DNA of 64,000 nucleotides, taken from contig CAVQBN010000011.1 of assembly GCA_963710735.1 (NCBI GenBank), forward strand, positions 10,682 to 74,681. Direction: 5' to 3'. The stretch's first letter is position 1. Every line of letters begins with the position of its first letter. The notes under the pieces were generated by a model. The model did no database searches and was not told the DNA's origin. It saw only the letters and a program-made list of their open reading frames with translations. This DNA is from an uncultured Bacteroidota bacterium (GTDB lineage: Bacteria > Bacteroidota > Ignavibacteria > Ignavibacteriales > Ignavibacteriaceae). Below are positions 42,377 to 58,700 of the stretch, in pieces. Position numbers and translations under genes: made by a program.

Positions 42377-42618
42377 AATCTCCTACAAATTTTAATTTAT
42401 TACCACTCCAATTAATGTAAGAAATATTTTCTAACAACTGTTTTTCTAATCAACTAAATTGATTTTATTTTGTAGTTAAAAATAAATTATATTATTTTAA
42501 TTAAAGATTCATCAAACTCTTCAAATTAAAATTGTTTATAGAAGACTTATAATACAGAGACCATATTTTAAATAATTTATATTAACAGAAAAAGTTGAAA
42601 ATTTTAAAAAGGAAATTT

Positions 42619-43125
42619 ATGAAATCAGAAGAACTGCGATCTTTACAAGCACCATTAAAAGAACGATATAAAAAAGAGCCTGAAACTGCAATAATTACAT
42701 TAAAAGCCAGCGGTAATTTGGGAGAAGGGGTAACTTGTAAGATTGATACCGGCAAAGCACTTATTGACGCCGGCCTTCATCCTGCCACCGGCGGGGACGG
42801 ATTTCATATTTGTTCCGGTGACCTTTTACTTGAAGCTCTTGTTGCATGTGCCGGAGTAACTTTAAACGCGGTAGCAACATCAATCGGAGTCAATATAAAG
42901 GATGGTGTTGTATACGCAGAAGGAGATTTAGATTTTCGCGGTACACTCGCTGTTTCAAAAGAAGCACCTGTTGGTTTTAAAGATATAAGACTAAATTTCG
43001 AATTAGATACGGATGCTTCCGAACAAGCGCTTGCAGATCTTTTAAAACTGACTAAAAGATATTGTGTCGTTTATCAAACACTACTTAATTCGCCGCAAAT
43101 AGAAACAACTATTAACAACAAATAA
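42619..43125 (+). CDS. OsmC-family protein
   Basis: GGDGFHICSGDLLLEALVACAG and a C-terminal TKRYCVVYQTL. The start was chosen at the ATG; the ORF track opens at TTG 42595. Confidence 0.75.
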   Translation: MKSEELRSLQAPLKERYKKEPETAIITLKASGNLGEGVTCKIDTGKALIDAGLHPATGGDGFHICSGDLLLEALVACAGVTLNAVATSIGVNIKDGVVYAEGDLDFRGTLAVSKEAPVGFKDIRLNFELDTDASEQALADLLKLTKRYCVVYQTLLNSPQIETTINNK

Positions 43126-43521
43126 TGTTATTCTTTAGCTTGAATTGCTATTATATAATATCCCAAACCATCAGAGTTTCCCTACAATTTGCTTGTGGCT
43201 TCGTGTTGTAAAGGTCGAAGAGAAAATTATTATTAACAATAATTTTTTAGCTTAAGATTTTATATTTTAATCGTAATTTTATTATCAGCGCTGTTTGTCC
43301 ATAAAAAAATTGTATCATTTTATGAATTTAAAATTTGACAAATAATTATTTTTGATTATATTCTTATTAATTAAAAAGGACCTTCCCCTTAAATTAGCTT
43401 TTTAAGAAATCTAACCCCATTTGCGGAAAATCTGAGTTTAAATAAAAACAAACTAGATAAATGGGTTTTTAAAAATATTTTTTATTCAGTCGGTTCCATA
43501 AATTTTATTTTAGTTGTACAA

Positions 43522-45627
43522 ATGATTGGCCAATCAATTCTACACTATAAAATAATTAAAAAACTTGGTGAAGGTGGAATGGGTGTAGTGTATCTTGCAG
43601 AAGATACTAGACTCGAAAGAAAAGTTGCCATTAAGTTTTTGCCTCACCATATATCATCAAGATCTGAAGAAGCAGAAAGGCTTAAGATAGAAGCCAAGGC
43701 TTCTGCTTCATTAAACCATCCAAACATAGCCCAAATATATGCAATTGAAGAAGCCGGTGATGATATGTTTATTGTTATGGAATATATAGATGGAATTGAA
43801 ATAAAAGATAAAATTAAATCGGGTTTAATTCCTTTCGATGAGGTAGTTAAAATAGCTGTGCAGATAGCAGCAGGATTGGAAGCCGCACATAAAAAAGGAA
43901 TAGTTCACAGGGATATTAAATCATCAAATATAATGATTACAAATGACGGCAGAGTTAAAATTATGGATTTTGGGCTGGCCAAAATAGGTAAGGGCTCTCA
44001 AGTTACAAAGGTAGGTACAACTGTTGGCACCATATCATACATGTCACCTGAACAATCACGCGGAGAAGATCTTGACCACCGTTCGGACATTTGGTCATTC
44101 GGGGTTGTGTTATATGAAATGTTAACTAACCGTTTGCCATTCAAAGGAGATTATGACCAGGCAATTATATATTCTATTTTAAATGAAGATCCTAATTCGG
44201 TATTAAATTATAGGCAGGATTTGCCTGAATACATTTTGAATGTTACAGGAAAAATGCTGCAGAAAAATCTTCGAGATCGATATCAAAACATGTCGGAACT
44301 GAAAGCTGATCTGCGTGATTCAACTGAGGAGCCGGTACAGCAGAAATCAATTGCTGTAATGTATTTTGAGAATATGAGTTCAGAAAAGGACAGCGATTAT
44401 TTTTGTGCCGGAATAACCGAAGATATTATTACTGATCTCTCTAAGATTAAGGAATTAAATGTTGTTTCCCGGACGGATGTTCTTCCTTACAGAAATAAAG
44501 AAGTGAACGTAAGCCAGATCGGCGATGCGCTTCGTGTAGGGTTTATCCTTGAGGGGAGTGTAAGAAAAGCTGGAAATAAGATGCGTATTACTGCTCAGTT
44601 GATTGATGTCCGAAGCGGCTATCATATTTGGGCCGAGAGATTCGACCGTTTTGTTGAGGATATTTTTGATCTGCAGACAGAAATTTCACAAAGAATTTCC
44701 GAGGCCCTTAAGGTATCACTTACTGACTCTGAAAAGAAATCACTTGAGAGGAAGCCTACTGAAGACTTGAAAGCTTATGAATTTTATATGCGCGGAAGAG
44801 AATTGGTATATCAAAGAGGCAGAAAGAATAATGAATCGGCAATACAGATGTTTGAAAAGGCAATCTCTATAGATCCGAAATTTGCAGCCGCTTATGCAGG
44901 TCTAGCCGAGGCATATTCTTACATGTATGAATGGTACGATGGAAATTCTCTCTGGCTTGAAAAAACCATAGAAGTGAACCAGACAGCTCTGAATTTAAAT
45001 CCTAATTTAGTAGAAGCAAAATTCGGTATAGCCATGGTTTACTTCTACCAAAAAAGGTTTAATGAATCAAAATCCGAACTTGAATCGATTATTAAAAAGA
45101 ATTCTCAATTTTATCCGGCATATTTACGGCTTGGTATTATCGCTGAAGTGTCCGAAGATATTAATTCTGCTTTGAATTATTACCAAACAGCATCTAAACT
45201 AAAACCACATGATGAGGAACCGTGGATTTGCTTGGATGGAGTTCTGAGGAAAATTGGAGATATTAAATTATCAGAAGAAGCTGCAAAGAAGGTTATTGAA
45301 GTAACAGCCCGAAAACTGGAATTAAATCAGGACGATTTAATTGTAATGAGCAGGCTTGCTAAAGCTTATGGAAGGTTTGGTGCTATAGAAGAAACACATG
45401 CTACACTTAAAAGTATTTTTAAAACAGCTCCAATTGACGGCCTTGTACTTTATTATTGTTCATGTGCTTACGGTTTCCTTGGAGAAAAAAATAATGCACT
45501 TGTTACATTGAGAAAATCATTTGAAGGAGGTTTTAGAGGACTGGCGAATTGGGCAAAAACCGAACCCGCGTTTGATTGTCTGCGCGAGAATCAAGCGTTT
45601 AACGAATTGATAGCTCAATCGGAATAG
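43522..45627 (+). CDS. Ser/Thr protein kinase with central TolB-N-like domain and C-terminal TPR repeats
   Basis: GEGGMGVVY, AIK, HRDIKSSNIM, DFGLAK and GTISYMSPEQ. Then IAVMYFENMS...ITAQLIDVRSGYHIWAERFDR, followed by TPR-like repeats. Confidence 0.9.
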   Translation: MIGQSILHYKIIKKLGEGGMGVVYLAEDTRLERKVAIKFLPHHISSRSEEAERLKIEAKASASLNHPNIAQIYAIEEAGDDMFIVMEYIDGIEIKDKIKSGLIPFDEVVKIAVQIAAGLEAAHKKGIVHRDIKSSNIMITNDGRVKIMDFGLAKIGKGSQVTKVGTTVGTISYMSPEQSRGEDLDHRSDIWSFGVVLYEMLTNRLPFKGDYDQAIIYSILNEDPNSVLNYRQDLPEYILNVTGKMLQKNLRDRYQNMSELKADLRDSTEEPVQQKSIAVMYFENMSSEKDSDYFCAGITEDIITDLSKIKELNVVSRTDVLPYRNKEVNVSQIGDALRVGFILEGSVRKAGNKMRITAQLIDVRSGYHIWAERFDRFVEDIFDLQTEISQRISEALKVSLTDSEKKSLERKPTEDLKAYEFYMRGRELVYQRGRKNNESAIQMFEKAISIDPKFAAAYAGLAEAYSYMYEWYDGNSLWLEKTIEVNQTALNLNPNLVEAKFGIAMVYFYQKRFNESKSELESIIKKNSQFYPAYLRLGIIAEVSEDINSALNYYQTASKLKPHDEEPWICLDGVLRKIGDIKLSEEAAKKVIEVTARKLELNQDDLIVMSRLAKAYGRFGAIEETHATLKSIFKTAPIDGLVLYYCSCAYGFLGEKNNALVTLRKSFEGGFRGLANWAKTEPAFDCLRENQAFNELIAQSE

Positions 45628-45683
45628 TGGTATAATTCTTTTTTATTTAGATATTAAGAAAAAAATAAACGCTTAAAATATTT

Positions 45684-46009
45684 TTACATGGCGGGAGAAG
45701 ACAAATGCCGAAATATATTATTGAACGAGTTATTCCAGGTGCCGGAGACATGACCCGGGATGAACTGAGAGCTGTTTCTGCAAGGTCTTGCAATGTTATA
45801 AGTGAGATCGGTCCGAAAATCCAATGGATTCACAGTTATGTTACCGGTAATAAAATTTATTGTATTTATATTGCACCCGACGAGGAAACTATACGCGATC
45901 ACGCCAGCAGGGTTGGAATTCCTGCAAATCATATTGCAATTATAGGCGGAATGATTGATCCAACTACTGCTGAATGACGATTCATAAAAGTTCGGATAAG
46001 TATTAAAAG
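45684..46009. repeat. left copy of an about 0.3-kb direct repeat (DUF4242 gene plus flanks); partner at 55224-55530 plus 55655-55685
   Basis: Hand alignment: the coding parts differ at 15 of 273 nt. The upstream GGAGAAGACAA and downstream CGATTCATAAA(A/T)GTTCGGATAAGTA flanks are shared. Confidence 0.85.
45705..45977 (+). CDS. DUF4242-family small protein (copy A)
   Basis: 90 aa. The MP.Y.IER..P.......WIHSYV...K..CIY.AP..E..R......P...I......DP pattern is shared with the other two copies and with my recollection of DUF4242. A GGAG lies 9 nt upstream of the ATG. Confidence 0.8.
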   Translation: MPKYIIERVIPGAGDMTRDELRAVSARSCNVISEIGPKIQWIHSYVTGNKIYCIYIAPDEETIRDHASRVGIPANHIAIIGGMIDPTTAE

Positions 46010-46029
46010 CAACTAATTAATTATTTGCC

Positions 46030-46374
46030 AATTAAGTAAAATGCAAAGAAAAATGAAGTTGAAATTTTTATTAGTTTCATTACATCAACAATATCATAAT
46101 TGATTAAACAAAAATTGAGAGAACAGAAATGAAAGTAATTCCAATGGGACCGAGAAAAGCAACTAGAAAAGATCCTTCAGCACTAAAAACTAGACAAGTG
46201 GGAATACTGAATCCGTGGAGAAAAGGTTTAAGCAACAATGAAATAGGAAACAAACTTTTTATTTCACCCAAAACGGTTGATCATCATATCTCGACAATTC
46301 TGTCTAAGTTAAATATTCATTCCTGTTATGAAGCAGCGGCTTTTGTTCATTCAAATCATGATCAAAAAATATAG
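46030..46374 (+). pseudogene. 5'-truncated remnant of a fourth LAL-type regulator (only the last ~110 codons; residual 81-aa LuxR-HTH ORF at 46129-46374)
   Basis: 46040-46128 aligns with the ...AIEIFNRLSASATSQLIKQKMRAQG region of the next gene but carries stops. From about 46221 onward it is nearly identical to the 3' end of the 46384-48975 gene. The first HTH-domain helix has degenerated (LNPWRKG in place of LNLLGKG). Confidence 0.7.
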
Positions 46375-46383
46375 GCCGGTAAA

Positions 46384-48975
46384 ATGGAACTATTAGAACG
46401 TGAAAAATATTTAGAGGAATTAGTAAGAACTTTCAGCAGCTTATCTGAAGGTAGAGGATTTGTGGTACTGATTTCAGGTGAAGCAGGAATCGGTAAAACT
46501 TCCCTAGTCGAGAATTTTACAGAAAAGGTTAAAGAAAGGGCAAATATCTTTTGGGGAACTTGCGATGCATTATTTACTCCCCGCCCCTTAGGTCCGCTCT
46601 ATGATATTGCATCTCAGTTAAAAAACGGATTATTGAATCTATTAAAAAATCAGGTATCAAAGTCTGTTGTTTTCCTGAAGTTCTTAGAGAATCTTCAGTT
46701 TAAAGAAAAGCTGAACATAGTAATAATTGAAGATGTTCATTGGGCGGATGAATCAACACTTGACCTGATAAAATTTCTCGGCCGGAGAGTAAATAGAACT
46801 AACTCACTTTTTATAATTACATACCGCGATGATGAAATTAACTCCGAGCATCCTTTAAGATTTGTTTTAGGCGATATCCCGTCTCAAAATATAAAAAAAA
46901 TTAAACTTCCTCTTTTAAGTGAAAAGACAGTTAATGATTTGGCAGCTTCACGAAGACTTGAAAATCTTTATAGTATCACAGGCGGTAATCCGTTTTTAAT
47001 TACAGAACTGTTGAACAATCAAAAGGAAGGAGTGCCGTCAACAATTAAAGATTCCATCCTCACCAGGATGTCCCGCCTTTCAAATGATGCAAAAGAATTG
47101 GTTCAAACCATCTCTATTGTACCTACTCGAACTGAAAAATGGCTAATAAATGGAATCACTAATATAAATAATGGAATACTGGAAGAATGTTTAGACTCTG
47201 GATTACTAAGACTTGATGCAGAATCAGTTTCATTCAAACATGAATTAAGTAGAATGGCTGTAGAAGAATCTCTAATTGAATCTAAAAGACAACTGTTGAA
47301 TGAAAAAGTTCTTAAAGAACTTCTTAAACAGGAAAAAACCGAAGATTATCTTGCTAGAATAATTCACCATGCTTTAAAGGTTCCGGATAGAGAAATTTTA
47401 ATTAAATATTCTCCTCTTGCTGCAAAACAGGCTTCCGAACTAAGCGCTCATAAACTAGCCGCTGAACATTATGGCAATGCACTTAGATTTGCAGGCAGCC
47501 TTCCTGTTAAAGAGCAGCTTGACCTTTATAAGAGAAGGGCTTACGAATGTTATTTAACCGGTCAAATTGAAGAAGGAATAAGTGCTTGCAAGTCCGTCAT
47601 TAAATTGCTTAAAGAATATTCAGACCCTTACAGTGAGGGAGAAAATTACAGAAGGCTTTCAAGATTGTTATGGCAGGCCGGTCAGGATTCCCAAAGCGAG
47701 GAATATATTTTCAAGGCAATAGAAGTTCTTAAAAAACTTAAACCTGGTAAACAGCTTGGAATGGCATACAGTAATTTATCTGCAATTTATATGTGCAGGG
47801 AAAATACTGAAGGAACTGTAAAATGGGGTGCGAAAGCAATTGAACTTGCAAAAAAAGTAAATGATCTCGAAACCGAAGTAAACACTCGCATTACTATCGG
47901 AAGCCGTAAGATGTGCGACAACGACGATGAAGGTGAATTGGAATTGAAGGACAGCCTTGAGGTATCTCTAAAAAATGATTTTCCAGAACTTGCTGCCAGA
48001 GCATACAATAACATTGGTTCAACATTTTTGTGGAGAAGAAATTTGCCGCAAGCTGAGAAATATTTTTCTTTGGGATACAATTATTGCATAGAGAAAGATA
48101 TTGATTCAATGTGGACCTTCATCGCGGGAGATTATGCTAGGACAAAATTATTTATGGGAAATTGGGATGAAGCTGTTGATATTGCAAATACAGTTTTGAA
48201 AAGAAACAATATCTCATTCATGCAAAGAATAGTTCCTCTTTATGTAATTGGAATTATCAGGACAAGACGTAATGATCCGGGGACTATAAGTATTTTTAAC
48301 GAATTAAATTCAAAGATTGGAAGTGTCGGTGAGATATGGGAAATGATAGTTACTGTTAAAGTAGCGACTGCAGAAATTTATTGGCTTCAAAACAAATTGG
48401 AAGACATAATTGATGAAATTGAAATCATATATAATAAATTGAGAGCTAATGGAAATTTATGGCTGATCGGTGAACTTGCATTCTGGTTGTGGAAAGCAAA
48501 CCGGCTCAAGGAAATTCCCGAACGAATAGCAAAACCGTATCTGCTGATGATTAGAGGCGAATGGAAATCCGCAGCTAAATTGTGGGAAGAATTAAAATGT
48601 CCTTATGAACAGGCAATGGCATTAAGCTGCGGTGACGAAGAAGCTATGAAAAACGCAATAGAAATTTTTAACCGTTTGAGTGCATCGGCAACATCACAAT
48701 TGATCAAACAGAAAATGAGAGCTCAAGGCGTAAGAAGCATTCCAAAAGGACCGAGAAGGACGACAAGAAATAATCCTTCCGGTTTAACAGCAAGGCAAAT
48801 AGAAATATTAAACCTGCTTGGAAAAGGTTTAAGCAATAATGAAATAGGAAACAAACTTTTTATTTCACCCAAAACGGTTGATCATCATATCTCGGCAATT
48901 CTGTCTAAGTTAAATATTCATTCCCGTTATGAAGCAGCGGCTTTTGTTCATTCAAATCATGATCAAAAAATATAG
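46384..48975 (+). CDS. large ATP-binding LuxR-family regulator (LAL/MalT-like): P-loop NTPase (AAA_16/STAND-type) + TPR-like repeats + C-terminal LuxR/GerE HTH; tandem paralog 1
   Basis: Walker A GEAGIGKT (residues 32-39), Walker-B-like IVIIEDVHWADESTLDLIKFLGRR, central TPR-like repeats and C-terminal LTARQIEILNLLGKGLSNNEIGNKLFISPKTVDHHISAILSKL. Confidence 0.85.
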   Translation: MELLEREKYLEELVRTFSSLSEGRGFVVLISGEAGIGKTSLVENFTEKVKERANIFWGTCDALFTPRPLGPLYDIASQLKNGLLNLLKNQVSKSVVFLKFLENLQFKEKLNIVIIEDVHWADESTLDLIKFLGRRVNRTNSLFIITYRDDEINSEHPLRFVLGDIPSQNIKKIKLPLLSEKTVNDLAASRRLENLYSITGGNPFLITELLNNQKEGVPSTIKDSILTRMSRLSNDAKELVQTISIVPTRTEKWLINGITNINNGILEECLDSGLLRLDAESVSFKHELSRMAVEESLIESKRQLLNEKVLKELLKQEKTEDYLARIIHHALKVPDREILIKYSPLAAKQASELSAHKLAAEHYGNALRFAGSLPVKEQLDLYKRRAYECYLTGQIEEGISACKSVIKLLKEYSDPYSEGENYRRLSRLLWQAGQDSQSEEYIFKAIEVLKKLKPGKQLGMAYSNLSAIYMCRENTEGTVKWGAKAIELAKKVNDLETEVNTRITIGSRKMCDNDDEGELELKDSLEVSLKNDFPELAARAYNNIGSTFLWRRNLPQAEKYFSLGYNYCIEKDIDSMWTFIAGDYARTKLFMGNWDEAVDIANTVLKRNNISFMQRIVPLYVIGIIRTRRNDPGTISIFNELNSKIGSVGEIWEMIVTVKVATAEIYWLQNKLEDIIDEIEIIYNKLRANGNLWLIGELAFWLWKANRLKEIPERIAKPYLLMIRGEWKSAAKLWEELKCPYEQAMALSCGDEEAMKNAIEIFNRLSASATSQLIKQKMRAQGVRSIPKGPRRTTRNNPSGLTARQIEILNLLGKGLSNNEIGNKLFISPKTVDHHISAILSKLNIHSRYEAAAFVHSNHDQKI

Positions 48976-48984
48976 GCCGGTAAA

Positions 48985-51573
48985 ATGGAACTATTAGAAC
49001 GTGAAAAATATTTAGAAGAATTAGAAAGAACTTTCAGCAGCTTATCAGAAGGCGGTGGATTCGTTGTACTTATTTCAGGTGAAGCAGGAATCGGTAAAAC
49101 CTCTTTAGTTGAAACTTTTCTGAATAAAATTGAAGGTAAAGCAAATATTTTGTGGGGTGCCTGCGATGCTTTATTTACACCGCGTCCATTGGGCCCTCTT
49201 TATGACATTGCCGCACAATTAAAAAACGGTTTGTTAAATCTTTTGAAAACCCAGTCTTCACGTACAGAAATTTTCCAGAAACTTCTTGAAGATATTCAAA
49301 ACACAAAACAACCGAACTGTTTAATCATGGAGGATATCCACTGGGCTGATGAATCAACTCTTGATTTAATAAAATTTTTGGGTAGAAGGACAAATCAATT
49401 AAATTCAATTTTTATTATTACCTATCGTGATGATGAACTCGGTCCTGAACACCCGTTAAGATTGGTCCTTGGAGACATTCTCTCAAAAAATTTAATCAGA
49501 TTAAAACTTCCGCCATTAACGGAAAAAACTGTTAATGATCTTGCGGATACATATGATATAAAAAATTTATTTGAAATTACCGGCGGCAATCCTTTCTTAA
49601 TAAATGAATTATTAAGCAGTAAAGATGAAGGAGTTCCTGCAACAATTAAAGATTCTATTCTAACAAGAATATCACGCCTTTCTGTTGAAGCTAAGAATTT
49701 AATAGAATTAATTTCTGTTATACCTACAAGAGTAGAAAATTGGCTTGTTGATGAAGTAATAAGTCCAAATTTAAAATTACTTGATGAATGTTTTAACTCA
49801 GGCATTCTTCGACTGGAAGATGAAGCAATTTCATTTAAACATGAATTAAGCAGGATGGCTGTGGAAGAATCTTTAAGTGAATCGAAAAGACAACATTTAA
49901 ATGAAAAAGTACTCCAAATTCTACTTAAGCAGGAAAGAATTGAAGATTATTTAGCAAGAATAATTCACCATGCAGTAAGAGGTCATGATAAGGGGGTAAT
50001 TATTAAATATGCTGCTGATGCAGCCAGGCAGGCTTCGAAACTAGGCGCACACAGATTAGCCGCTAATCATTATCAAAACGCTTTAAGATTTGTTGATAAC
50101 CTTCCTATTGAGAAACAACTGGAACTTTATGAAGGCAGATCGTATGAGTGTTATTTAACAAGCCAGGTTGAAGAAGCCATAAAGGCAGGCGAGATTATTA
50201 TAGAAATTCTTAAAAAACATCCGGATCCTGAACGCGAAGGCGAAAACTATAGAAAGATGTCTAGAATGTTTTGGTATAACTGCCAAGATATAAAAGGCGA
50301 GGAATATCTTGATAAAGCAATTCAAATATTTGAAACTCTTCCGCCCGAAAAGAAACTGGCAATGGCTTATAGTAACAAATCCGGGATTTATATGATTAGG
50401 GGGAATAAGGATTTAGCAGTTAAGTGGGGTGAAAAAGCCATTAACCTTGCGAGGAGTTTAAATGATTTAGATACTGAAATACACGCACTAAATAATATTG
50501 GCTGTGCAAAAATGGCCGCAGATGATAAAACCGGAGAAGATTATTTAAAAAGAAGTCTTCAACTTTCTCTTCAAAATGATTTTTTCGAACATGCGGCAAG
50601 AGCTTATACAAATTTGGGTTCTTGTTACTTGGAGCAACGAAATCTTTCCGAAGCAGACAAGTATTTTGCAACAGGATTGGAATATTGCAATGGAAAAGAT
50701 CTGTTCACATACGGTCTTTGTCTTGTAGGACATTATGCATACGCCAAATTGTGTTTAGGCAAATGGGAAGAAGCAATAGAATTGTCGAATGTAATTTTAA
50801 AAAGAGACGATCTTGCTGCAGCAAACAGTATTATTCCGTTATGTGTATTGGGATTGATTAGAGCAAGGCGAAACGATCCCGGATTTATAGAGCTTCTTGA
50901 TAAATCATATTCGCTGGCTTTCGAAATTGGGGAAATGGAAAAAATTGTTATTGTTACCGCTGCAAGGGCTGAAAAATTCTGGCTTCAGAATACGCTAAAT
51001 GATATCATTGATGAAATAGAATCAGTTTATTTAAAAGAAAAAGAATCGAAAAATATCTGGAATATCGGCGTATTTGCTTACTGGTTGTGGAAAGGAAATC
51101 GTCTTTCTGAAATTCCACAAAATATTGCAGAGCCGTATCTTCTGCAAATAAAAGGTGAATGGAAATCCGCAGCGAAATTATGGGAAAAGCTCAATTGTCC
51201 TTATGAACAAGCTATGGCACTCAGCGAAGGTGATGAAGCGGCAATGAAGCATGCAATCGAAATTTTTGAAAGTTTCGGCGCATCTGCAGCGTCTCAATTG
51301 ATTAAGCAGAAAATGAGGAAGCAGGGAGTTAAAAGCATACCTAAAGGACCAATAAAAGCTACTAGGAAAAACCCAGCCGGTTTAACAACAAGGCAGGTAG
51401 AAGTTTTGAAACTTTTAGGAAAAGGTTTAAGTAATAATGAAATCGGAAATAAACTTTTTATTTCACCAAAAACAGTTGATCACCACATTTCCGCAATATT
51501 ATCCAAACTAAATATTCATTCCAGATTTGAAGCTGCAGCATTTGTTAATTCAAATAAGTCCATCAAATTATAG
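48985..51573 (+). CDS. large ATP-binding LuxR-family regulator (LAL/MalT-like), tandem paralog 2
   Basis: Same architecture: GEAGIGKT, LIMEDIHWADESTLDLIKFLGRR, TPR-like core and LTTRQVEVLKLLGKGLSNNEIGNKLFISPKTVDHHISAILSKL. Confidence 0.85.
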   Translation: MELLEREKYLEELERTFSSLSEGGGFVVLISGEAGIGKTSLVETFLNKIEGKANILWGACDALFTPRPLGPLYDIAAQLKNGLLNLLKTQSSRTEIFQKLLEDIQNTKQPNCLIMEDIHWADESTLDLIKFLGRRTNQLNSIFIITYRDDELGPEHPLRLVLGDILSKNLIRLKLPPLTEKTVNDLADTYDIKNLFEITGGNPFLINELLSSKDEGVPATIKDSILTRISRLSVEAKNLIELISVIPTRVENWLVDEVISPNLKLLDECFNSGILRLEDEAISFKHELSRMAVEESLSESKRQHLNEKVLQILLKQERIEDYLARIIHHAVRGHDKGVIIKYAADAARQASKLGAHRLAANHYQNALRFVDNLPIEKQLELYEGRSYECYLTSQVEEAIKAGEIIIEILKKHPDPEREGENYRKMSRMFWYNCQDIKGEEYLDKAIQIFETLPPEKKLAMAYSNKSGIYMIRGNKDLAVKWGEKAINLARSLNDLDTEIHALNNIGCAKMAADDKTGEDYLKRSLQLSLQNDFFEHAARAYTNLGSCYLEQRNLSEADKYFATGLEYCNGKDLFTYGLCLVGHYAYAKLCLGKWEEAIELSNVILKRDDLAAANSIIPLCVLGLIRARRNDPGFIELLDKSYSLAFEIGEMEKIVIVTAARAEKFWLQNTLNDIIDEIESVYLKEKESKNIWNIGVFAYWLWKGNRLSEIPQNIAEPYLLQIKGEWKSAAKLWEKLNCPYEQAMALSEGDEAAMKHAIEIFESFGASAASQLIKQKMRKQGVKSIPKGPIKATRKNPAGLTTRQVEVLKLLGKGLSNNEIGNKLFISPKTVDHHISAILSKLNIHSRFEAAAFVNSNKSIKL

Positions 51574-51582
51574 GCTGGGCTA

Positions 51583-54174
51583 ATGCAATTATTAGAACGT
51601 GAAAAATATTTAGTAGAATTAGAAAAATCCTTTTACAACTTGTCAGACGGAGGAGGATTCATTGTTTTAATTTCAGGCGAAGCAGGCATCGGTAAAACAA
51701 CTTTAGTTGAAACTTTTTTAGAGAAAATTAAAAACAAAGCGAATATTTTGTGGGGTGCCTGTGATGCATTGTTTACACCACGCCCTTTGGGACCGCTTTA
51801 TGATATTTCGACTCAGATGAAGAATGGTTTATTTAGATTATTGGATAACCGATCTCCCAGGGAAATAATATTTGCAAAGTTCCTTGAAGAACTTCAGAAT
51901 AGTAAACTCCCGAATGTGGTAATTATAGAAGATGCCCATTGGGCTGATGAATCTACATTAGACCTTATTAAATTTTTTGGCAGAAGAGTTGGTAGAATCT
52001 GCTCTCTTTTTATAATAACCTTTAGAAACGATGAAATAAGTCCTAATCACCCTTTAAGGTTGGTTATGGGTGATATTCCTTCTAAAAATCTTGTTAGGAT
52101 AAAACTACCTCACCTAACAAAAGAAACAGTTGATCATCTTGCCGATTCTAACGGGGTAAAGAATTTATATGAAATAACCGGCGGTAATCCTTTTTTGATT
52201 TATGAATTACTAACTAATAAAGATGAATCGATACCATCAACAATAAAAGATTCGATCTTGGCAAGAATATCCCGCCTTTCCGATAAGGCCCGTAATTTAG
52301 TTGCATTGGTCTCTATTATCCCGACGCGTGCTGAAAAATGGCTGATAAATGAAATTTTTCCTTTGAATAATGAGATTCTTAATGAATGTTTAAACTCAGG
52401 TATTTTAAAATCGGATGTAAACTCAATTTCTTTCAAACATGAATTAAGCAGAATGGCGGTGGAGGAATCTTTAAGTGAAACCCAAAGGCAAGTATTAAAT
52501 AAAGATGTTCTTCAAATTCTTCTGAAACAGGAAAAGATTGATAATTATCTGGCAAGGATAATTCATCATGCATTAAGAGTACCGGACAAAGAAGTCTTAA
52601 TTAATTATTCACAACTAGCAGCTAAGCAGGCATCTGCTTTAAGTGCTCACAGCTTAGCCGCGGATCACTATCAAAATGCTTTAAAGTTTATTGACAATCT
52701 TCCTCTGATGATGCAGTTGGAGTTTTATGAAGGAAGATCATACGAATGTTATTTAACCGGACAAATTGAAGAAAGCATTAAAGCATGTAATGCAATAATT
52801 GAAATATTTAAAGAATATTCCGATCCATATCGCGAAGGGGAAAATTATCGAATATTATCAAGGTCACTTTGGTATGCCGGTTATGATTTAAAGGCAGAAG
52901 AGTCTCTTTTCAAAGCTATAGAAATACTTGAAAAAATACCGCCAGGTAAGCAGCTTGCAATGTCGTACAGTAATTTGTCGCAGCTTTACCATTGCAGGGA
53001 TGAATGGAAACTAGCCGTAGAGTGGGGAGGAAAGGCTTATGACTTAGCAAAAAGAATAAATAATTCTGAGGTTATGATACATTCTCTTAACAATATCGGT
53101 ACCAGCAGTTTACTTGCCGGAGATGATGCCGGAGAACCTTTTTTGAAAGAAAGCCTTGATTTATCTCTTAAGAATAAATTTCACGAACATGCTGCTCGCG
53201 CTTATGATAATTTTGGAATCAGTTATGTGTGGAGAAGAGACTTACTCAAGGCAGACAAATATTTTAGTGCGGGATTAGAATATTGTTATGAAAAAGATAT
53301 TGATACTTTAGGTTTATGTATAGCCGGGTACAATACAAAAACCAAATTATATTTAGGTAATTGGGACGAAGCAGTAGAATCTGCAAGTTCAGTTTTAAAA
53401 AGGAATAATATCCCTCTAATAAATAAAATTGTTCCATTATATGTAATCGGAGTTATCCGGTTAAGGCGCGGTGATCCCGGTGCGATGAGTGTTTTGAATG
53501 AGTTAAATTCTCTCGGAGAGAATATTGAGGAAGTTGTTGACATGATAGTACCCATCAAGTCCCTAAAAGCCGAAGCATTATGGATGGATAATAAACCCGA
53601 AAAGATAATTGAGGAAGTTGAACCGGTTTACAATAAAATAAATGGGAGATATAATCATTGGGCTATCGGAGAACTTGCATACTGGCTTTGGAAAGCAAAT
53701 CATCTTTTTGAAATTCCTGAAAGGATAGCAAAACCGTATCTTTTACAGATTAAAGGGGAATGGAAAGCTTCTGCAGAATTATGGAAAGAATTGAAATGTC
53801 CGTTTGAACAAGCCTTGGCTTTAAGTGAAGGAAATGAAAACAGTATGAAAGCGGCAATTGAAATCTTTGAACATTTGGGAGCTTCTGCAACTTCTCAAAA
53901 AATTAGAAAATCAATGAGAGAGGTAGGTATAAAAAGCATTCCCAAAGGACCAAGAAAAACAACAAGAAAAAACCCAGCAGGTTTAACAACAAGGCAGGTA
54001 GAAGTTTTAAACCTTCTTGGTAAAGGATTAAGCAATAATGAAATCGGAAGTAAACTTTTTATTTCACCAAAGACTGTTGATCACCATATTTCTGCGATAT
54101 TAACCAAACTAAATATTCACTCCCGCTATGAAGCTGCTGCTTTTGTTCAAAACAATTCAATAATTCAAAAATAG
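51583..54174 (+). CDS. large ATP-binding LuxR-family regulator (LAL/MalT-like), tandem paralog 3
   Basis: Same architecture: GEAGIGKT, VVIIEDAHWADESTLDLIKFFGRR, TPR-like core and LTTRQVEVLNLLGKGLSNNEIGSKLFISPKTVDHHISAILTKL. Confidence 0.85.
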   Translation: MQLLEREKYLVELEKSFYNLSDGGGFIVLISGEAGIGKTTLVETFLEKIKNKANILWGACDALFTPRPLGPLYDISTQMKNGLFRLLDNRSPREIIFAKFLEELQNSKLPNVVIIEDAHWADESTLDLIKFFGRRVGRICSLFIITFRNDEISPNHPLRLVMGDIPSKNLVRIKLPHLTKETVDHLADSNGVKNLYEITGGNPFLIYELLTNKDESIPSTIKDSILARISRLSDKARNLVALVSIIPTRAEKWLINEIFPLNNEILNECLNSGILKSDVNSISFKHELSRMAVEESLSETQRQVLNKDVLQILLKQEKIDNYLARIIHHALRVPDKEVLINYSQLAAKQASALSAHSLAADHYQNALKFIDNLPLMMQLEFYEGRSYECYLTGQIEESIKACNAIIEIFKEYSDPYREGENYRILSRSLWYAGYDLKAEESLFKAIEILEKIPPGKQLAMSYSNLSQLYHCRDEWKLAVEWGGKAYDLAKRINNSEVMIHSLNNIGTSSLLAGDDAGEPFLKESLDLSLKNKFHEHAARAYDNFGISYVWRRDLLKADKYFSAGLEYCYEKDIDTLGLCIAGYNTKTKLYLGNWDEAVESASSVLKRNNIPLINKIVPLYVIGVIRLRRGDPGAMSVLNELNSLGENIEEVVDMIVPIKSLKAEALWMDNKPEKIIEEVEPVYNKINGRYNHWAIGELAYWLWKANHLFEIPERIAKPYLLQIKGEWKASAELWKELKCPFEQALALSEGNENSMKAAIEIFEHLGASATSQKIRKSMREVGIKSIPKGPRKTTRKNPAGLTTRQVEVLNLLGKGLSNNEIGSKLFISPKTVDHHISAILTKLNIHSRYEAAAFVQNNSIIQK

Positions 54175-54279
54175 GGAATGATTTCTTATAATATAGGGAA
54201 TTCTCCCGATTCGATTCAAAATCATTAAAACTAAATTAACCTCCACAAATAATTCATAATTTAAAAAACTGGAGGTAAC

Positions 54280-54552
54280 ATGCCTAGATATCTTATCGAA
54301 AGAACTTTTCCGGATGGATTGTTAATTCCAGTAACTGAAGATGGTGCAAAATACTGCTTAAATGTTATATACAATAACACCGATGAAAATGTTACTTGGA
54401 TTCACTCTTACGTGAGCGACGACAAAAAGAAAACTTTCTGTATTTACGATGCACCCACTCCTGAAGCAGTGAGAAAAGTAGCAAATAAGAACAAACTGCC
54501 GATTGATAAAATAACCGAAGTGACTGTCCTAGATCCATATTTTTATAAATAA
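54280..54552 (+). CDS. DUF4242-family small protein (divergent copy B)
   Basis: MPRYLIERTFPDGL...VTWIHSYVSDDKKKTFCIYDAPTPEAVRKVA..NKLPIDKITEVTVLDPYFY. GGAGG lies upstream of the ATG. Confidence 0.8.
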   Translation: MPRYLIERTFPDGLLIPVTEDGAKYCLNVIYNNTDENVTWIHSYVSDDKKKTFCIYDAPTPEAVRKVANKNKLPIDKITEVTVLDPYFYK

Positions 54553-54569
54553 TTTAAAAAGGAGTTATT

Positions 54570-55157
54570 ATGAAAAAGTTGACTTTTATTCTAGCATGCC
54601 TGTTTTCATTAACATTTATTTTAATGATTGGCTGTCAGAATTCTTCAATGGAAGAACCTACTGCAGTTCAAACACAACCCGCTGGTATTACATCCGGTAA
54701 TCCGCAAGGATTATCAAAATCCTATTCCAGTACTTATGCACCGGAACTGCAAAAAGAATTAGCTCTTGCAAGATCTGCCACAGCAAAGTACCATGATATA
54801 AGTAAGGCAATCGCAGATGGTTATGCAGACATAGATGTTGTAGTGCAGAATATGGGATATCATTATATGGATACTGAAAATGTTAAGGATACATTTGATC
54901 CCGCGAAACCGGCATTGCTCGTTTATTCAAAAAACCCGGTAAATGGAAACATGAGATTGGTTGCAGTGGAATATGCTATTCCCAATACCGATCCTAGACC
55001 TGAGGGATTTGCGGGAGATGCCGACGTATGGGAAAATAATCCTGATTTTCACTTATGGCTCTGCCATGCATGGGTATGGTACAATAATCCTAATGGTATG
55101 TTCAATGAATTTAACCCGCGTGTGCATGTTGCTGAAAGTGATATTACTTATCCATAA
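54570..55157 (+). CDS. lipoprotein of unknown function
   Basis: Signal peptide with lipobox (FILMIGC). 195 aa with a conserved-looking core ATAKYHDISKAIADGYADIDVVVQNMGYHYM and a Trp/His-rich C-terminus. GGAG lies upstream. The gene starts 17 nt after DUF4242 copy B. Confidence 0.6.
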   Translation: MKKLTFILACLFSLTFILMIGCQNSSMEEPTAVQTQPAGITSGNPQGLSKSYSSTYAPELQKELALARSATAKYHDISKAIADGYADIDVVVQNMGYHYMDTENVKDTFDPAKPALLVYSKNPVNGNMRLVAVEYAIPNTDPRPEGFAGDADVWENNPDFHLWLCHAWVWYNNPNGMFNEFNPRVHVAESDITYP

Positions 55158-55188
55158 TTAGTACGAAAAATTTATTAATAATCTTTAG

Positions 55189-55211
55189 GCCCTCATAAAA
55201 GAGGGCTTTTT
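55189..55211 (+). terminator. intrinsic terminator after the lipoprotein gene
   Basis: GCCCTC (55189-55194), loop ATAAAA, GAGGGC (55201-55206), then TTTTT. Confidence 0.65.
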
Positions 55212-55223
55212 AAATAAAAAATT

Positions 55224-55530
55224 TTTTCATAATAGGAGAAGACAAATGCCGAAATATATTATTGAACGAGTTATTCCAGGTGCTGGAGACATGACCCGGG
55301 ATGAACTGAAAGCTGTTTCTGCAAGGTCATGCAATGTTATAAGTGAAATCGGTCCGAAAATCCAATGGATTCACAGCTATGTTACCGGTAATAAAATTTA
55401 TTGTATTTATATTGCACCGGACGAGGAAACTATCCGTGACCATGCCAGCAGGGTTGGAATTCCTGCAAATCATATTGCAATTATCGGTGGAATGATCGAT
55501 CCGACTACTGCTGAGTGACGATTCATAAAA
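55224..55530. repeat. right copy of the about 0.3-kb direct repeat carrying DUF4242 (its distal flank resumes at 55655-55685 after a 135-bp indel)
   Basis: See the left copy at 45684-46009. GATTCATAAA occurs at 55520-55529 and again at 55655-55664. Confidence 0.85.
55246..55518 (+). CDS. DUF4242-family small protein (copy A', one residue different from copy A)
   Basis: The 90-aa product differs from the 45705-45977 product only at R22K. Confidence 0.8.
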   Translation: MPKYIIERVIPGAGDMTRDELKAVSARSCNVISEIGPKIQWIHSYVTGNKIYCIYIAPDEETIRDHASRVGIPANHIAIIGGMIDPTTAE

Positions 55531-55702
55531 ATGTTTTTATAGACAGAATAAAATTTATTTCTGTGGATGGGAAGAGAAATAATTTATACCTATAACCAAT
55601 TCCTGTGTGTTTATTATTCTGAAGAGTTAACAAATGAATTAAGATTAAGTAACAGATTCATAAATGTTCGGATAAGTACAAAAAGAAATTCAAAATAATA
55701 AA

Positions 55703-58700
55703 ATGAATAATAAAGTATTAAAACTTTATAGTTTAATTTTCTTAATAATTTTTTCATTAAGTGAATTTTTATTTGCACAGCTGAATCCAAATAATCTTGT
55801 TCAATTCAACGAAAAGGATGGTCTGCCCGGAGCCGAAATTGGACAAGTAATGCAGGATCATTTGGGTTATATTTGGATACCCTCTTTAAGCGGTCTTACA
55901 AGATATAACGGTTACGAATTTAAAAGATACTTAATGAATCTGCACGATTCTACTTCTATTAAGACCACAATTATAGGTTCATTATTTGAAGATAGTAAAA
56001 GAAATATTTGGATCGGCGGTACAGGAACTATTGATGTTTATAATCCATACAATAAGTCGTTTAAGCAATTTGAAAATGGCGCTTTAAGTGATTTTACCCA
56101 ATTAATTGACATTAATAGTATTTCTGAAAGTGAAAATGGTGTAATTTATTTTGGTGTTTGTGAAAATACAGCACCTGCTTTCAAGAATTCCTCGTCGGAA
56201 ATTTCAAATTGTCTTTTATATTATGATGAAAAGGACGGTATTATTAAAAAATTCCAGCCGCCCAAAGGTATTGTAATAAAGAGAGTGTACCGTTTAAGAT
56301 CCGATTCTAATAAAAATATTTGGGTTCTAAGTAAAAGCGGTTTATTCAAAATTGATAGGAAGAATAATTTCACAAAGATTAAAGCTTTCAACGAAGAGCT
56401 TATAAATAACAACGGTATAATTCATGATTTTAAAATTGATAAAAATGGTATTATTTGGATTACCGGATATAATTCAAAGTTTTTTTCATTTGATACAAAA
56501 ACAGAAAAGACGAATATATATTCTTTAAATGGACTATTTAAAGGCTTTGATAATAAATTAGTTACAAGAGCAATTGCTGTAGATAAATTCAATAATATCT
56601 GGCTTGGCAGTAATCAGGGATTAATATTTTTCGATCGCACAAAAAAGAAATTTGATATCTTCCAAAATGAATCTGACAGACAAATTGAAAGAGCCGACAT
56701 TTACGGATTAAATTTTGATTCATTTGGTTCTCTTTGGATTGGAACGGAATCAAAAGGTTTATTAAAATATGATGAACGAACTCTATTCGAATCATTTAGT
56801 TATAACAAAGTTGAAAATAATTCATTAACCGGCGGATGGGCAAACAGAATTATTGAAGGGAAAAATGGTAAAATTTGGATTACTACTTCTGACGACAATT
56901 TAAATAATTTTGGGCTAAATGAATTTGATCCGAAAACCAGAAAAATAAAACGTTGGTTTATTCAAAAATTTTTACCAAACTGCCATGCTTTATACGGCAT
57001 TTACCAATTGTCTAAAAATCAATTTTACTTAGGAACAGACTTAGGTTTGTTCTTATTTAATTCTACTAATAATTCAATTAAAAAAATTATTTTTAACGGA
57101 TTATCTGAAAATTCGTTTATATATGATTTTTATAATGACACAAAAGGTAACCTATGGCTGTGTACTAACGCGGGTATTTATAAACGAAATAAAGGCAGCG
57201 AAAAGTTTATACATTATTACTTAATTTCTTCTGACAGCTTAAGATCCGTTAGCAATCAAGTAACTAGGGTAATAGAAAGTAAACATTACGGCTTATGGTT
57301 TTGTACCGATAACGGTTTGTTCCTTTATAATTATGATAAAGATAAATTTGAAAGGCGCGGATTTGATATTAAAAGTGGAAGTGTTTTTCCATGTCAGGAT
57401 ATAAATAGTCTGTATGAGGACAAAAATGGAATTGTCTGGGTCGGAGAATGGGAAGGCGGATTAAGCCGGTATAATCCTTTAACCGGAGAAATAAAGAACT
57501 ATTCAACTAATGACGGCCTGCCTTCCATGAACATTCAAGGCATTCTTGGAGATGAAAAAAATAATACATTATGGTTAAGTACATTTGAAGGCCTCGTTCG
57601 TTTTGATAAATCGACTAAACAGTTTACTAATTATACTACTGAAGATGGAATCCAAAGTCAGTTATTTGCCGATGGTTCATATCTTAAAACTTCAACCGGT
57701 CTTTTTATATTCGGCGGCTCAAACGGAATAACGGTTTTCAATCCAAACGATATTGTTAGAAATTCTATTCCACCTAAAGTGTTTTTAACTGATTTAAAGA
57801 TTTCTAATAAATCTATTTTGCCTGGGAAAAATTCCATATTAAAAAAACCTATTTATGATACTGATGAAATAACTTTAGATCATAATGACAACAATATTTC
57901 TATTGACTTTATTGCGCTTCATTATTTGAATCCTTCCAAAAATCAATATGCCTATATTCTAGAAAATTATGAAAAAGAATGGAGGTCAGTCGGAAACCAG
58001 CGCTCTGCTTATTACTCTAATTTACCGCCTGGCGAGTATATGTTTCGTGTCAAGGCTTCAAACAATCATGACTTATGGAATGAAAAAGGTGCCGAACTAA
58101 AAATTATTATTAAACCCCCATGGTGGGAAACATGGTGGGCTTATTTAACTTATGCAGCTTTCACGCTTTTTGCTTTATATTTAATCAGAAGGTATGAAAT
58201 GAATAGAATTTCATATAAACACCAGATTAAAATTAATGAAGCTGTATTGAAGGAAAAAGAAGAAACAGAAAAAATTAAATCACAATTCTTTGCAAATATT
58301 TCACATGAATTCAGAACACCTCTTACTTTAATACTTGGGCCGGCAGAAAAAATAATTACTAATTCTACCAAAGACATTAAAAAGGAAGCCGGAATAATTA
58401 AAACGAATGCCTCAAGACTTCTTCATCTTGTTAATCAATTATTAGACCTTTCAAAATTAGAGTCTGAGAAACTTAAGCTTAAGGCTTCCAAACAGAATAT
58501 AGTATCATTCATAAAATGGATTGCCTTGTCGTTTGAATCTCTATCCGAATCAAAAGACATAACGCTCCAATTAATAACTGAGCAGGAATACATAGAATTA
58601 TACTTTGATAAGGAAAAGATGACCAAGATATTTACAAATATTTTATCAAACGCTTTTAAATTCACTCCTGAAGAAGGAAAAATTACGATAACAATTAAAG

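Follow-up and report, generated by a model that had tools for sequence, protein, structure and literature searches.

A DUF4242-lipoprotein operon probably controlled by tandem LAL regulators through a conserved operator in an uncultured Ignavibacteriaceae bacterium

Introduction

The genome of an uncultured Ignavibacteriaceae bacterium (NCBI GenBank assembly GCA_963710735.1) harbours a locus in which three genes for LAL regulators, STAND-type ATPases with TPR repeats and a C-terminal LuxR/GerE helix-turn-helix (HTH), stand head to tail among three genes for small DUF4242 proteins, here named DUF4242-A, DUF4242-B and DUF4242-A'. The stretch analysed, in the following the window, comprises 64,000 nucleotides (nt) of contig CAVQBN010000011.1 (positions 10,682 to 74,681, forward strand), and the locus occupies positions 45684-55685 of it. 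A preliminary description of the locus had read it as a repeat-bounded island holding a multi-sensor regulatory module, whose DUF4242 proteins would be either the regulated outputs of the LALs or their small partners. The question raised by this locus is what connects such large regulators with such small proteins.

The answer proposed here concerns DUF4242-B. The LALs probably bind an operator in front of this gene and activate an operon composed of B and a lipoprotein gene, which would constitute a conserved two-part regulatory module with three sensors converging on one promoter.

Layout of the module

The components of the proposed module in the window, all on the + strand, are the following.

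46384-48975, + strand: LAL1, 863 amino acids (aa), with Pfam matches to AAA_16 (1.9e-19), TPR_12 (1.1e-10) and GerE (5.6e-18)
48985-51573, + strand: LAL2, 862 aa, paralog with AAA_16, TPR_12 and GerE
51583-54174, + strand: LAL3, 863 aa, paralog, TAG stop codon within the distal operator box
54169-54179, + strand: predicted distal operator half-box AAATAGGGAAT, with 22-nt spacing to the proximal box
54191-54210, + strand: predicted proximal operator box ATATAGGGAATTCTCCCGAT, GGGA..TCCC inverted repeat, 28.3 bits
54232-54237, + strand: -10-like hexamer TAAATT, assigned by pattern, 21 nt past the proximal box
54280-54552, + strand: DUF4242-B, 90 aa, predicted cytoplasmic, ferredoxin fold, PF14026 at 77.9 bits
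54570-55157, + strand: lipoprotein-like gene, 195 aa, signal peptide and Cys22 lipobox, starting 17 nt after B
55187-55208, + strand: intrinsic-terminator hairpin with an 8-bp stem, followed by a U-run

All genes named in the preliminary description were located on the + strand where it had placed them, and the gene anatomy is borne out by the Pfam matches (PF14026 for the DUF4242 genes; AAA_16, TPR_12 and GerE for the LALs). The contrast in ribosome-binding sites that it had pointed out was seen again in the sequence, with GGAG-type sites upstream of A, B, the lipoprotein gene and A', and not upstream of the LAL genes. A contig from another sample, L084, served as comparison sequence for the window (loci are referred to by L numbers). 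Since L084 is collinear with the window, with 95.7% identity and an identical layout, the layout is neither an assembly artefact nor private to one strain.

Linkage of DUF4242-B and LAL regulators across phyla

The DUF4242 genes of the locus match PF14026 at 78-87 bits (cutoff 28.5), and they belong to different subfamilies. B shares 37% identity with A and A', and a B profile gives 183 bits for B vs 46 bits for A. For the B-type, the best 80 of at least 594 relatives in species-representative genomes were collected with 10-kb flanks. According to the source records, these loci belong to Ignavibacteria, Chloroflexota, Dormibacterota, Actinomycetota, Pseudomonadota and Deltaproteobacteria/Myxococcota, and further to Acidobacteriota, Verrucomicrobiota, Rokubacteria, Deinococcota and Armatimonadota. 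Eighty metagenome loci around A-type DUF4242 genes were used as control, and the six-frame open reading frames (ORFs) of the loci were searched with a profile of the Ignavibacteria LAL family.

A full-length LAL match (model positions 1-860) was found directly beside B in 57 of the 80 B-type loci, covering at least ten phyla. The regulator lies upstream on the same strand in 44 of these loci, with a gap of mostly 105-310 nt, upstream and divergent in ten, and downstream in three. In contrast, LAL was absent from all 79 A-type control loci, L084 being set aside. Where at least 3 kb of upstream flank is required, a LAL stands beside B in 54 of 69 loci and beside A in 0 of 33 (Fisher p = 1.7e-15). 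The reverse look-up gave the same pairing, as a B ortholog follows 8/8 assessable LAL homologs, whose identity to the window copies is 48-77%. Among the B loci without such a match, several from Chloroflexota possess another STAND-TPR-LuxR regulator (NB-ARC/AAA_22 with TPR_12/TPR_MalT and GerE) at the same position.

These counts indicate that a functional link between DUF4242-B and AAA_16-TPR-LuxR regulators exists. The association of the two families suggested in the preliminary description was therefore recovered for the B-type, across phyla, but not for the A-type, which has no LAL in the 79 other loci and no operator. The idea of three DUF4242 copies interleaved with the regulators has to be given up, since the link concerns B only and the A flanks are missing in other Ignavibacteria modules.

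Operator and promoter upstream of DUF4242-B

A composite element was found upstream of B orthologs in genomes ranging from 33% to about 70% GC. It consists of CAAnATAGGGnA followed, 22 nt start-to-start, by AyATrGGkA-N5-yCCCGAT; that is, of two ATAGGGnA boxes 22 nt apart, the proximal of which ends in TCCCGAT and precedes a -10-like hexamer by 21-22 nt. The proximal box was scored with a 20-nt weight matrix. The box of the window, with 28.3 bits, is the sole site of at least 17 bits on both strands of the 64 kb, and the scan of the window detected no operator upstream of A, A' or LAL1. Among the B-type loci, sites of at least 15 bits are present within 1 kb upstream of B in 53/83, as well as in 5/5 reverse-sampled loci, whereas 545 kb of A-type control loci contain two weak matches, of 15.0 and 17.1 bits, and nothing there reaches 20 bits. 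For the distal half-box, the start lies precisely 22 nt ahead of the proximal box in 40 of 46 loci, and in 43 of the 46 the half-box outscores 95% of shuffles.

The operator is kept in co-directional and in divergent arrangements of LAL and B, and five loci retain it with no LAL adjacent. Where Ignavibacteria have the co-directional order, the distal box shares sequence with the TAG that ends the regulator gene (AAATAGGGAA; 54169-54179 in the window). Minus-strand matrix matches inside the LAL coding regions come from the P-loop codons (GIGKT) read in reverse complement and were discarded as a coding artefact; they are found at 46489-46508 (-) in the window and at equivalent places in L021, L045, L067 and L073, with 13-18 bits.

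A TAnnnT hexamer starts 21-22 nt past the box in 34 of 49 sites, with about 0.6 expected per offset, and no -35-like hexamer was found at the B promoter. By the TAnnnT spacing, the box is placed at about -53 to -34, the usual place of the -35 element. The layout, with its predicted -10, would fit a class-II-type activator-dependent promoter. A generic promoter/terminator scan yielded promoter matches no better than shuffles. With a conserved operator and promoter geometry ahead of B, the option that DUF4242 proteins are regulated outputs gains support for this gene.

Additional operator copies were found in front of other genes. Strong copies precede lipoprotein-family genes in L027 and L066. 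Copies of 24-27 bits precede an I9-S8 subtilase gene in L045 (5728-6720) and, in three Solirubrobacterales loci, a gene for a protein of 590 aa resembling animal haem peroxidases, with a twin-arginine translocation (TAT) signal.

L040, 5107-6882, - strand: haem-peroxidase-like gene, operator upstream
L067, 5290-7074, - strand: haem-peroxidase-like gene, operator upstream
L073, 5289-7073, - strand: haem-peroxidase-like gene, operator upstream

The haem-peroxidase-like protein and the L045 subtilase are candidate additional members of the regulon.

Co-variation of regulator and operator

The recognition helix of the main clade, KTVDHHVSAIL-KL, was found in 56 regulators and goes with ATAGGG/TCCCGAT boxes. 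LAL1-3 share this helix, except for one S-to-T change outside the DHH core. An alternative clade with NB-ARC/AAA_22, TPR and GerE domains stands upstream of B in five Chloroflexota loci (L007, L044, L062, L063 and L065). Its recognition helix reads RTVETYVTRIL (longer form, RTVETYVTRILNKL), and three of the five loci (L007, L044 and L063) possess a TTGTAG-type repeat, ATTGTAGGGG...ATTGTAGTG...CCCCGAC, upstream of B. This co-variation of helix and operator supports a direct reading of the boxes by the adjacent regulator.

The LAL array

The three LALs match AAA_16 at 65-79 bits, TPR_12 at 41-48 bits and GerE at 65-66 bits in Pfam, and the Walker A and B motifs are legible in their translations as GEAGIGKT(S/T) and hhhh(E)D-HWADE. 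Residues 16-505 of LAL1 match PH0952 (6mfv), a STAND TPR sensor, with E = 2.5e-7, and the LAL HTH matches the HTH domains of NarL, DevR, VraR and GerE in the PDB. The genes are arranged with a period of 2598-2601 nt and spacers of 9 nt.

LAL1-3 are 64% identical to each other, with a saturated synonymous divergence (dS) of 1.5-1.9 and a ratio of nonsynonymous to synonymous divergence (dN/dS) of 0.14-0.18. Divergence is greatest in the TPR region, at residues ~400-700, and conservation is highest at the two ends, with the P-loop and the HTH; the HTH is about 90% identical among the paralogs, while the TPR regions differ by about 50%. Homologs in other assemblies are closer to single copies than the copies are to one another, LAL2 being 76.5% identical to P0013 and LAL3 77.5% identical to P0011, and LAL1-3 do not form a clade of their own. 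Because of these counterparts elsewhere, about 77% identical, and the lack of an own clade, the LAL duplications are considered old. The preliminary description had named a recent, strain-specific duplication as what would speak against a module; for the LALs the saturated dS and the closer homologs in other genomes show the opposite. Between the window and L084, dN/dS is 0.20 for LAL1, 0.10 for LAL2 and 0.15 for LAL3, which indicates purifying selection on all three. The multi-sensor reading of the locus is retained in part: the paralogs diverge most in the TPR sensor region, as it would predict, but DUF4242-A and A' fall outside the module.

The junctions between LAL1 and LAL2 (48968-48984) and between LAL2 and LAL3 (51566-51582) hold a degraded ATAGG(C) relic of the distal operator box. 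These relics suggest that the LAL duplication unit ended just past the stop codon. A short ORF upstream of LAL1 belongs to the same family.

46129-46374, + strand: LAL remnant, ORF of 81 aa with the GerE HTH only (E = 3.4e-15)

This ORF is 70-78% identical to the C-termini of the LALs. Compared with L084, 11 of its 81 residues are changed and dN/dS is 0.72. It was considered as a functional solo HTH and rejected as such, since this dN/dS argues for decay, and it is probably the decaying 3' remnant of a fourth LAL copy.

Conservation and fold of DUF4242-B

Orthologs of B are 64-85% identical across at least ten phyla, and identity amounts to 70-97% among the 120 best database matches, which by source names include Rokubacteria, Anaerolineales and Eisenbacteria. 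In a cross-phylum alignment of 20 sequences, 35 of 90 positions are invariant, including C26, H42, C54 and the C-terminal DPYFY tail. These invariant residues are candidates for a ligand, redox or partner site. The AlphaFold2 model of B (pLDDT 87.7) has a beta-alpha-beta-beta-alpha-beta fold, and its best PDB match in Foldseek is SCO4226 (4oi6_A; E = 5e-6, TM 0.70/0.77, 21% identity).

All three DUF4242 genes have a dN/dS of 0.00-0.03 relative to L084. In addition, the segment of B and the lipoprotein gene (54280-55157 in the window, 9605-10482 in L084) differs little at synonymous sites: B has one change in 270 nt (dS 0.018) and the lipoprotein gene a dS of 0.033, vs 0.09-0.36 for the LALs and A/A' on its flanks. 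This low dS could be due to strong constraint at the codon or mRNA level, or to a recent exchange of the segment.

The lipoprotein as third component

Neighbourhood clustering placed the lipoprotein family in 30 of the 83 B-type loci, nearly always touching B, and the family is also present in 4/5 reverse-sampled loci. Its genes are found 5-45 nt downstream of B, after a second DUF4242 paralog, or between LAL and B. A signal peptide starts all members of the family, and the lipobox Cys of the window protein is residue 22. Y74, D83, Y85, H98, E134, Y135, D152, H166, W168 and W170 of the secreted protein are invariant. The lipoprotein gene, which the preliminary description had passed over as incidental, is a conserved component of the module.

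Searches of the window lipoprotein against Pfam, NCBIfam and PDB sequences gave no match. A profile of its family retrieved 3,513 cluster representatives (E <= 1e-3) from 1.84 billion proteins. The AlphaFold2 model reaches a pLDDT above 90 for residues ~56-195 and has no structural relative in the PDB or BFVD (best E = 0.63 and 0.28, respectively, TM <= 0.19). Five members of the secreted family (P0361, P0362, P0363, P0376 and P0383), of 296-658 aa, contain two or three profile stretches and represent tandem-domain or fused versions.

The usual order in Ignavibacteria is LAL(s), B, a B paralog of about 124 aa with a signal peptide, and then the lipoprotein-family protein. The exported B paralog is missing from the window and from L084. 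In Dormibacterota and some Solirubrobacterales the slot after B is filled by a secreted PF03640 protein. Downstream of the window lipoprotein gene, a 71-nt segment with the terminator folds at -14.2 kcal/mol (z = -2.9); the terminator was missed by the generic scan and its hairpin was confirmed by folding. The hairpin and U-run are predicted to end the B-lipoprotein operon.

DUF4242-A, its duplicate and other neighbouring genes

The flanks of the module carry the following features.

43522-45627, + strand: Ser/Thr kinase with TPR C-terminus (Pkinase 1.2e-56), context, separate module
45674-45973 and 55215-55514: direct repeat of ~300 bp, copies 93% identical, containing the A gene plus ~30 nt upstream
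45705-45977, + strand: DUF4242-A, PF14026 at 86.2 bits, subfamily different from B
55246-55518, + strand: DUF4242-A', PF14026 at 86.8 bits, duplicate of A

In seven loci, an A-type gene is preceded on its own strand, at a distance of 17-154 nt, by a full-length ortholog of the TPR Ser/Thr kinase (787-892 bits), and two further A-type loci have the kinase cut by contig ends. OsmC orthologs are present near A-type genes in six or seven loci. Among the B-type loci, such a kinase was found in 1 of 83. Because A-type genes recur with kinase and OsmC and without LAL or operator, the left end of the locus represents a separate OsmC/kinase/DUF4242-A neighbourhood. The kinase-A arrangement (42595-45977 in the window) recurs in L094, L095, L104, L106, L116, L121 and L142, and also in L085, L102, L090, L105 and L112. 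A TetR-like gene stands beside A-type genes in 14 other loci.

A' differs from A by one amino acid, with 94% nt identity, a dS of 0.28 and a dN/dS of 0.017; relative to L084, its dN/dS is 0.013. L084 also has both repeat copies, diverged to the same degree. A' is a lineage-specific duplicate of A, the duplication predating the split of the window and L084, with both copies maintained. Downstream of A', the repeat tail is interrupted by a segment of about 125 nt (55531-55655) that has GATTCATAAA at either border (55521-55530 and 55656-55665). After A, a tail of 34 nt follows directly (45979-46012), and this tail resumes at 55655-55688. L084 has a diverged version. The insert was considered as a repeated element and rejected, as it is single-copy in the window.

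On the other side, a gene for a hybrid histidine kinase with Y_Y_Y/Reg_prop domains and an AraC output domain adjoins the module at 55703-59893. A homolog lies near the module in L012 (13949-18055), and a protein with the same domain set was found near the module in L168 (1-2194, -); this may be residual synteny within Ignavibacteria. In L165, L166 and L168, which represent one orthologous context in three assemblies, an arsenic-resistance (ars) operon with ArsR, a SAM methyltransferase, ArsP, LMWPc ArsC, thioredoxin and Acr3/SBF follows directly after the module, and an aldo-keto reductase gene precedes it.

Proposed mechanism and alternative explanations

In the proposed mechanism, a LAL would oligomerise on ATP and its signal, as presumed from the family of MalT/LAL-type STAND regulators, and would bind the two direct ATAGGGnA boxes, 22 bp apart, to which conservation, specificity and co-variation point. 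The proximal box (ATrGGkA-N5-TCCCGAT), at roughly -53 to -34, would take the place of the -35 element. The bound LAL would then activate a short operon made up of the -10-like hexamer, a GGAGG ribosome-binding site, DUF4242-B, the 17-nt gap, the lipoprotein gene and the terminator. Three old LAL paralogs with one DNA specificity and diverged TPR sensors would in this way integrate differing inputs at one promoter. The peroxidase-like and protease regulon candidates, the invariant cysteines of B and the ars and thioredoxin genes next to the module in one context give a weak hint of a redox or extracytoplasmic-stress theme.

Several points weigh against this mechanism. All of its support is in silico, and the -10 is assigned by pattern. 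Repression would be served just as well by a box over the -35 position; the preference for activation comes from the lack of a -35 element and from the usual behaviour of MalT/LAL family members. The convergence of three sensors assumes that all LALs are expressed and bind one site. In thirteen loci a LAL is adjacent and the operator scores under 15 bits, and ten loci lack both LAL and operator. Finally, the conservation of B exceeds that of the regulator. This is unusual for a mere output and suggests that further interactions constrain B, perhaps including one with the regulator.

B could accordingly be a protein partner of the LAL, acting on the TPR region as a ligand or redox co-factor or as an anti-activator, with its transcriptional control as feedback. 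We regard this explanation, which is compatible with activation of the operon by the LALs, as possible but rather doubtful. The strict two-way co-occurrence of B and LAL is in agreement with it, as is the far stronger conservation of B than of the regulator, with its 35 invariant positions out of 90. TPR domains are typical protein-binding modules, and MalT offers an analogy, being itself under the control of the partner proteins MalK, MalY and Aes. However, near-identical B proteins would face TPR regions that differ by about 50%, which is hard to reconcile with one interface unless it lies in the conserved parts, and LAL and B are in every case separated by some 90 nt or more, a gap that holds the promoter and is never a coupled-translation junction. 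Another binder of the boxes is a good deal harder to accept. Here the boxes would be read by another regulator or serve as a promoter UP-like element, and the LAL would be adjacent for another reason, for example to control distant targets. The five loci with operator and no adjacent LAL, and the 13 with LAL and no site of at least 15 bits, could be explained in this way, and binding of the boxes by the LAL is a prediction from sequence. Yet recognition helix and operator type change together between clades, the operator starts at the LAL stop codon in co-directional loci and is retained in divergent ones, and neighbourhood clustering revealed no other conserved regulator gene. We therefore consider this alternative quite unlikely.

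Two further explanations start from the families and the repeats. The preliminary description had mentioned nickel binding by DUF4242 proteins, and the locus could serve nickel or metal homeostasis if they bound nickel like SCO4226. The Pfam family is named after SCO4226, B shares its fold, and the ars operon beside the module in one orthologous context, in three assemblies, would fit a metal theme. Nickel binding by SCO4226 is nonetheless weak (dissociation constant about 10 uM, surface sites, 0.8 M soak) and its ligands are conserved in Streptomyces only (PMC4186839). In B, the Ni-1 ligands D43, S46 and H76 are replaced by S, K and T in the alignment; the NCBIfam equivalog Ni_bind_SCO4226 (NF033706) gives B 26.3 bits vs a cutoff of 125 and does not match A; and no metal transporter or metallochaperone was found among the conserved neighbours by neighbourhood clustering. 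The nickel suggestion is not transferable to this locus, a metal homeostasis function is very improbable, and the label "nickel responsive protein" should not spread to the B subfamily. Scarcely credible, too, is a mobile or defence island with the A/A' repeats as element ends and the STAND NTPases acting in phage defence, even though 300-bp direct repeats surround 9.5 kb, the module occurs in differing genomic contexts among genomes, and antiviral Avs proteins belong to the STAND NTPases. The GC content is 0.33-0.37 throughout, with no compositional shift; Rfam and tRNA scans detected no RNA genes in the window, tRNA genes included; and there is no recombinase ORF, integrase or transposase, in 43-60 kb. 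In PADLOC, the LALs obtained only HTH-level matches (24-28 bits, CARF3 models), and B and the lipoprotein none. The LALs have a DNA-binding HTH as effector domain, to which a conserved operator belongs; the repeats consist of a duplicated gene that is functional and under strong purifying selection; and the A flanks are missing from other Ignavibacteria modules. The supposed island is better described as a lineage-specific juxtaposition together with the duplication of A. As a defence component, the Ser/Thr kinase was also rejected: its PADLOC matches to PD-T4-6 and mad6, of up to 303 bits, reflect the generic kinase domain only, and no other defence component was found near it.

Activation of the B-lipoprotein operon by the LALs thus remains the preferred explanation. 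If it is correct, a large DUF4242 subfamily (at least 594 loci in species-representative genomes) would gain a regulator and a promoter, as would an unannotated secreted family of about 3,500 cluster representatives with no structural relative. LAL regulators are numerous and mostly orphan, and one clade would now be paired with an operator, a promoter geometry and targets in genomes from 33% to 70% GC. The locus would also offer a natural system for how paralogous STAND sensors converge on one promoter. A wider proposal, which we put forward as speculative and on balance unlikely, is that LAL, operator, B and secreted protein form an undescribed pan-phylum signalling system, with B as an obligate small sensor subunit that feeds back and the secreted protein with a new extracytoplasmic activity. 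In that case B would perhaps be a thiol/redox or small-ligand switch operating via Cys26, His42 and Cys54, and tandem sensor paralogs would let one promoter integrate several signals. No description of a module of LAL, operator, B and secreted protein was found in the searchable literature.

Comparison with known systems

Similar to MalT of Escherichia coli, a STAND activator dependent on ATP and maltotriose, the LALs begin with a P-loop NTPase, continue with a superhelical repeat sensor and end in a LuxR/GerE HTH. MalT recognises short boxes that are repeated and G-rich in the core, and one of them overlaps the -35 region of a promoter without its own -35. The predicted LAL boxes resemble them in the repeated G-rich core and in the box over the -35 position. 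On the other hand, there is no full-length similarity, as the MalT equivalog NF003420 gives LAL 37.1 bits vs a cutoff of 537, in the HTH only. The LALs also differ from MalT in the box sequence, in a two-gene operon as target instead of sugar catabolism, and in the presence of three tandem paralogs.

Among solved structures, PH0952 of Pyrococcus horikoshii (6MFV) gives the best match to the NTPase and TPR part of LAL1. It is archaeal and distantly similar, and the match stops short of the C-terminal LuxR HTH of LAL1.

SCO4226 of Streptomyces coelicolor (4OI3/4OI6), the founding member of PF14026/DUF4242, has the family and the ferredoxin-like fold in common with B. The two proteins share 21% identity, with a profile E-value of 0.078, and the Ni ligands are unconserved in B. 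SCO4226 belongs to the PhoRP regulon and is located beside phoU and phoRP (PMC4991794), whereas B adjoins a LAL.

The actinomycete LALs, such as PikD, AveR and SCO0877/SCO7173 (PMC3282765), whose family name fits the present regulators by domain composition, have the same architecture and size, and their genes likewise lie beside their targets, as those of pathway-specific activators do. In contrast to them, the clade described here is found without biosynthetic gene clusters, has the distinct helix KTVDHHVSAIL, and is paired, in at least ten phyla, with a single unchanging small operon as target and with a conserved operator. The type of regulator (MalT/LAL) is already known, and what distinguishes the present module, as predicted from the compared loci, is the pan-phylum operator, the ultra-conserved small target, the unannotated secreted partner and the triple-sensor array.

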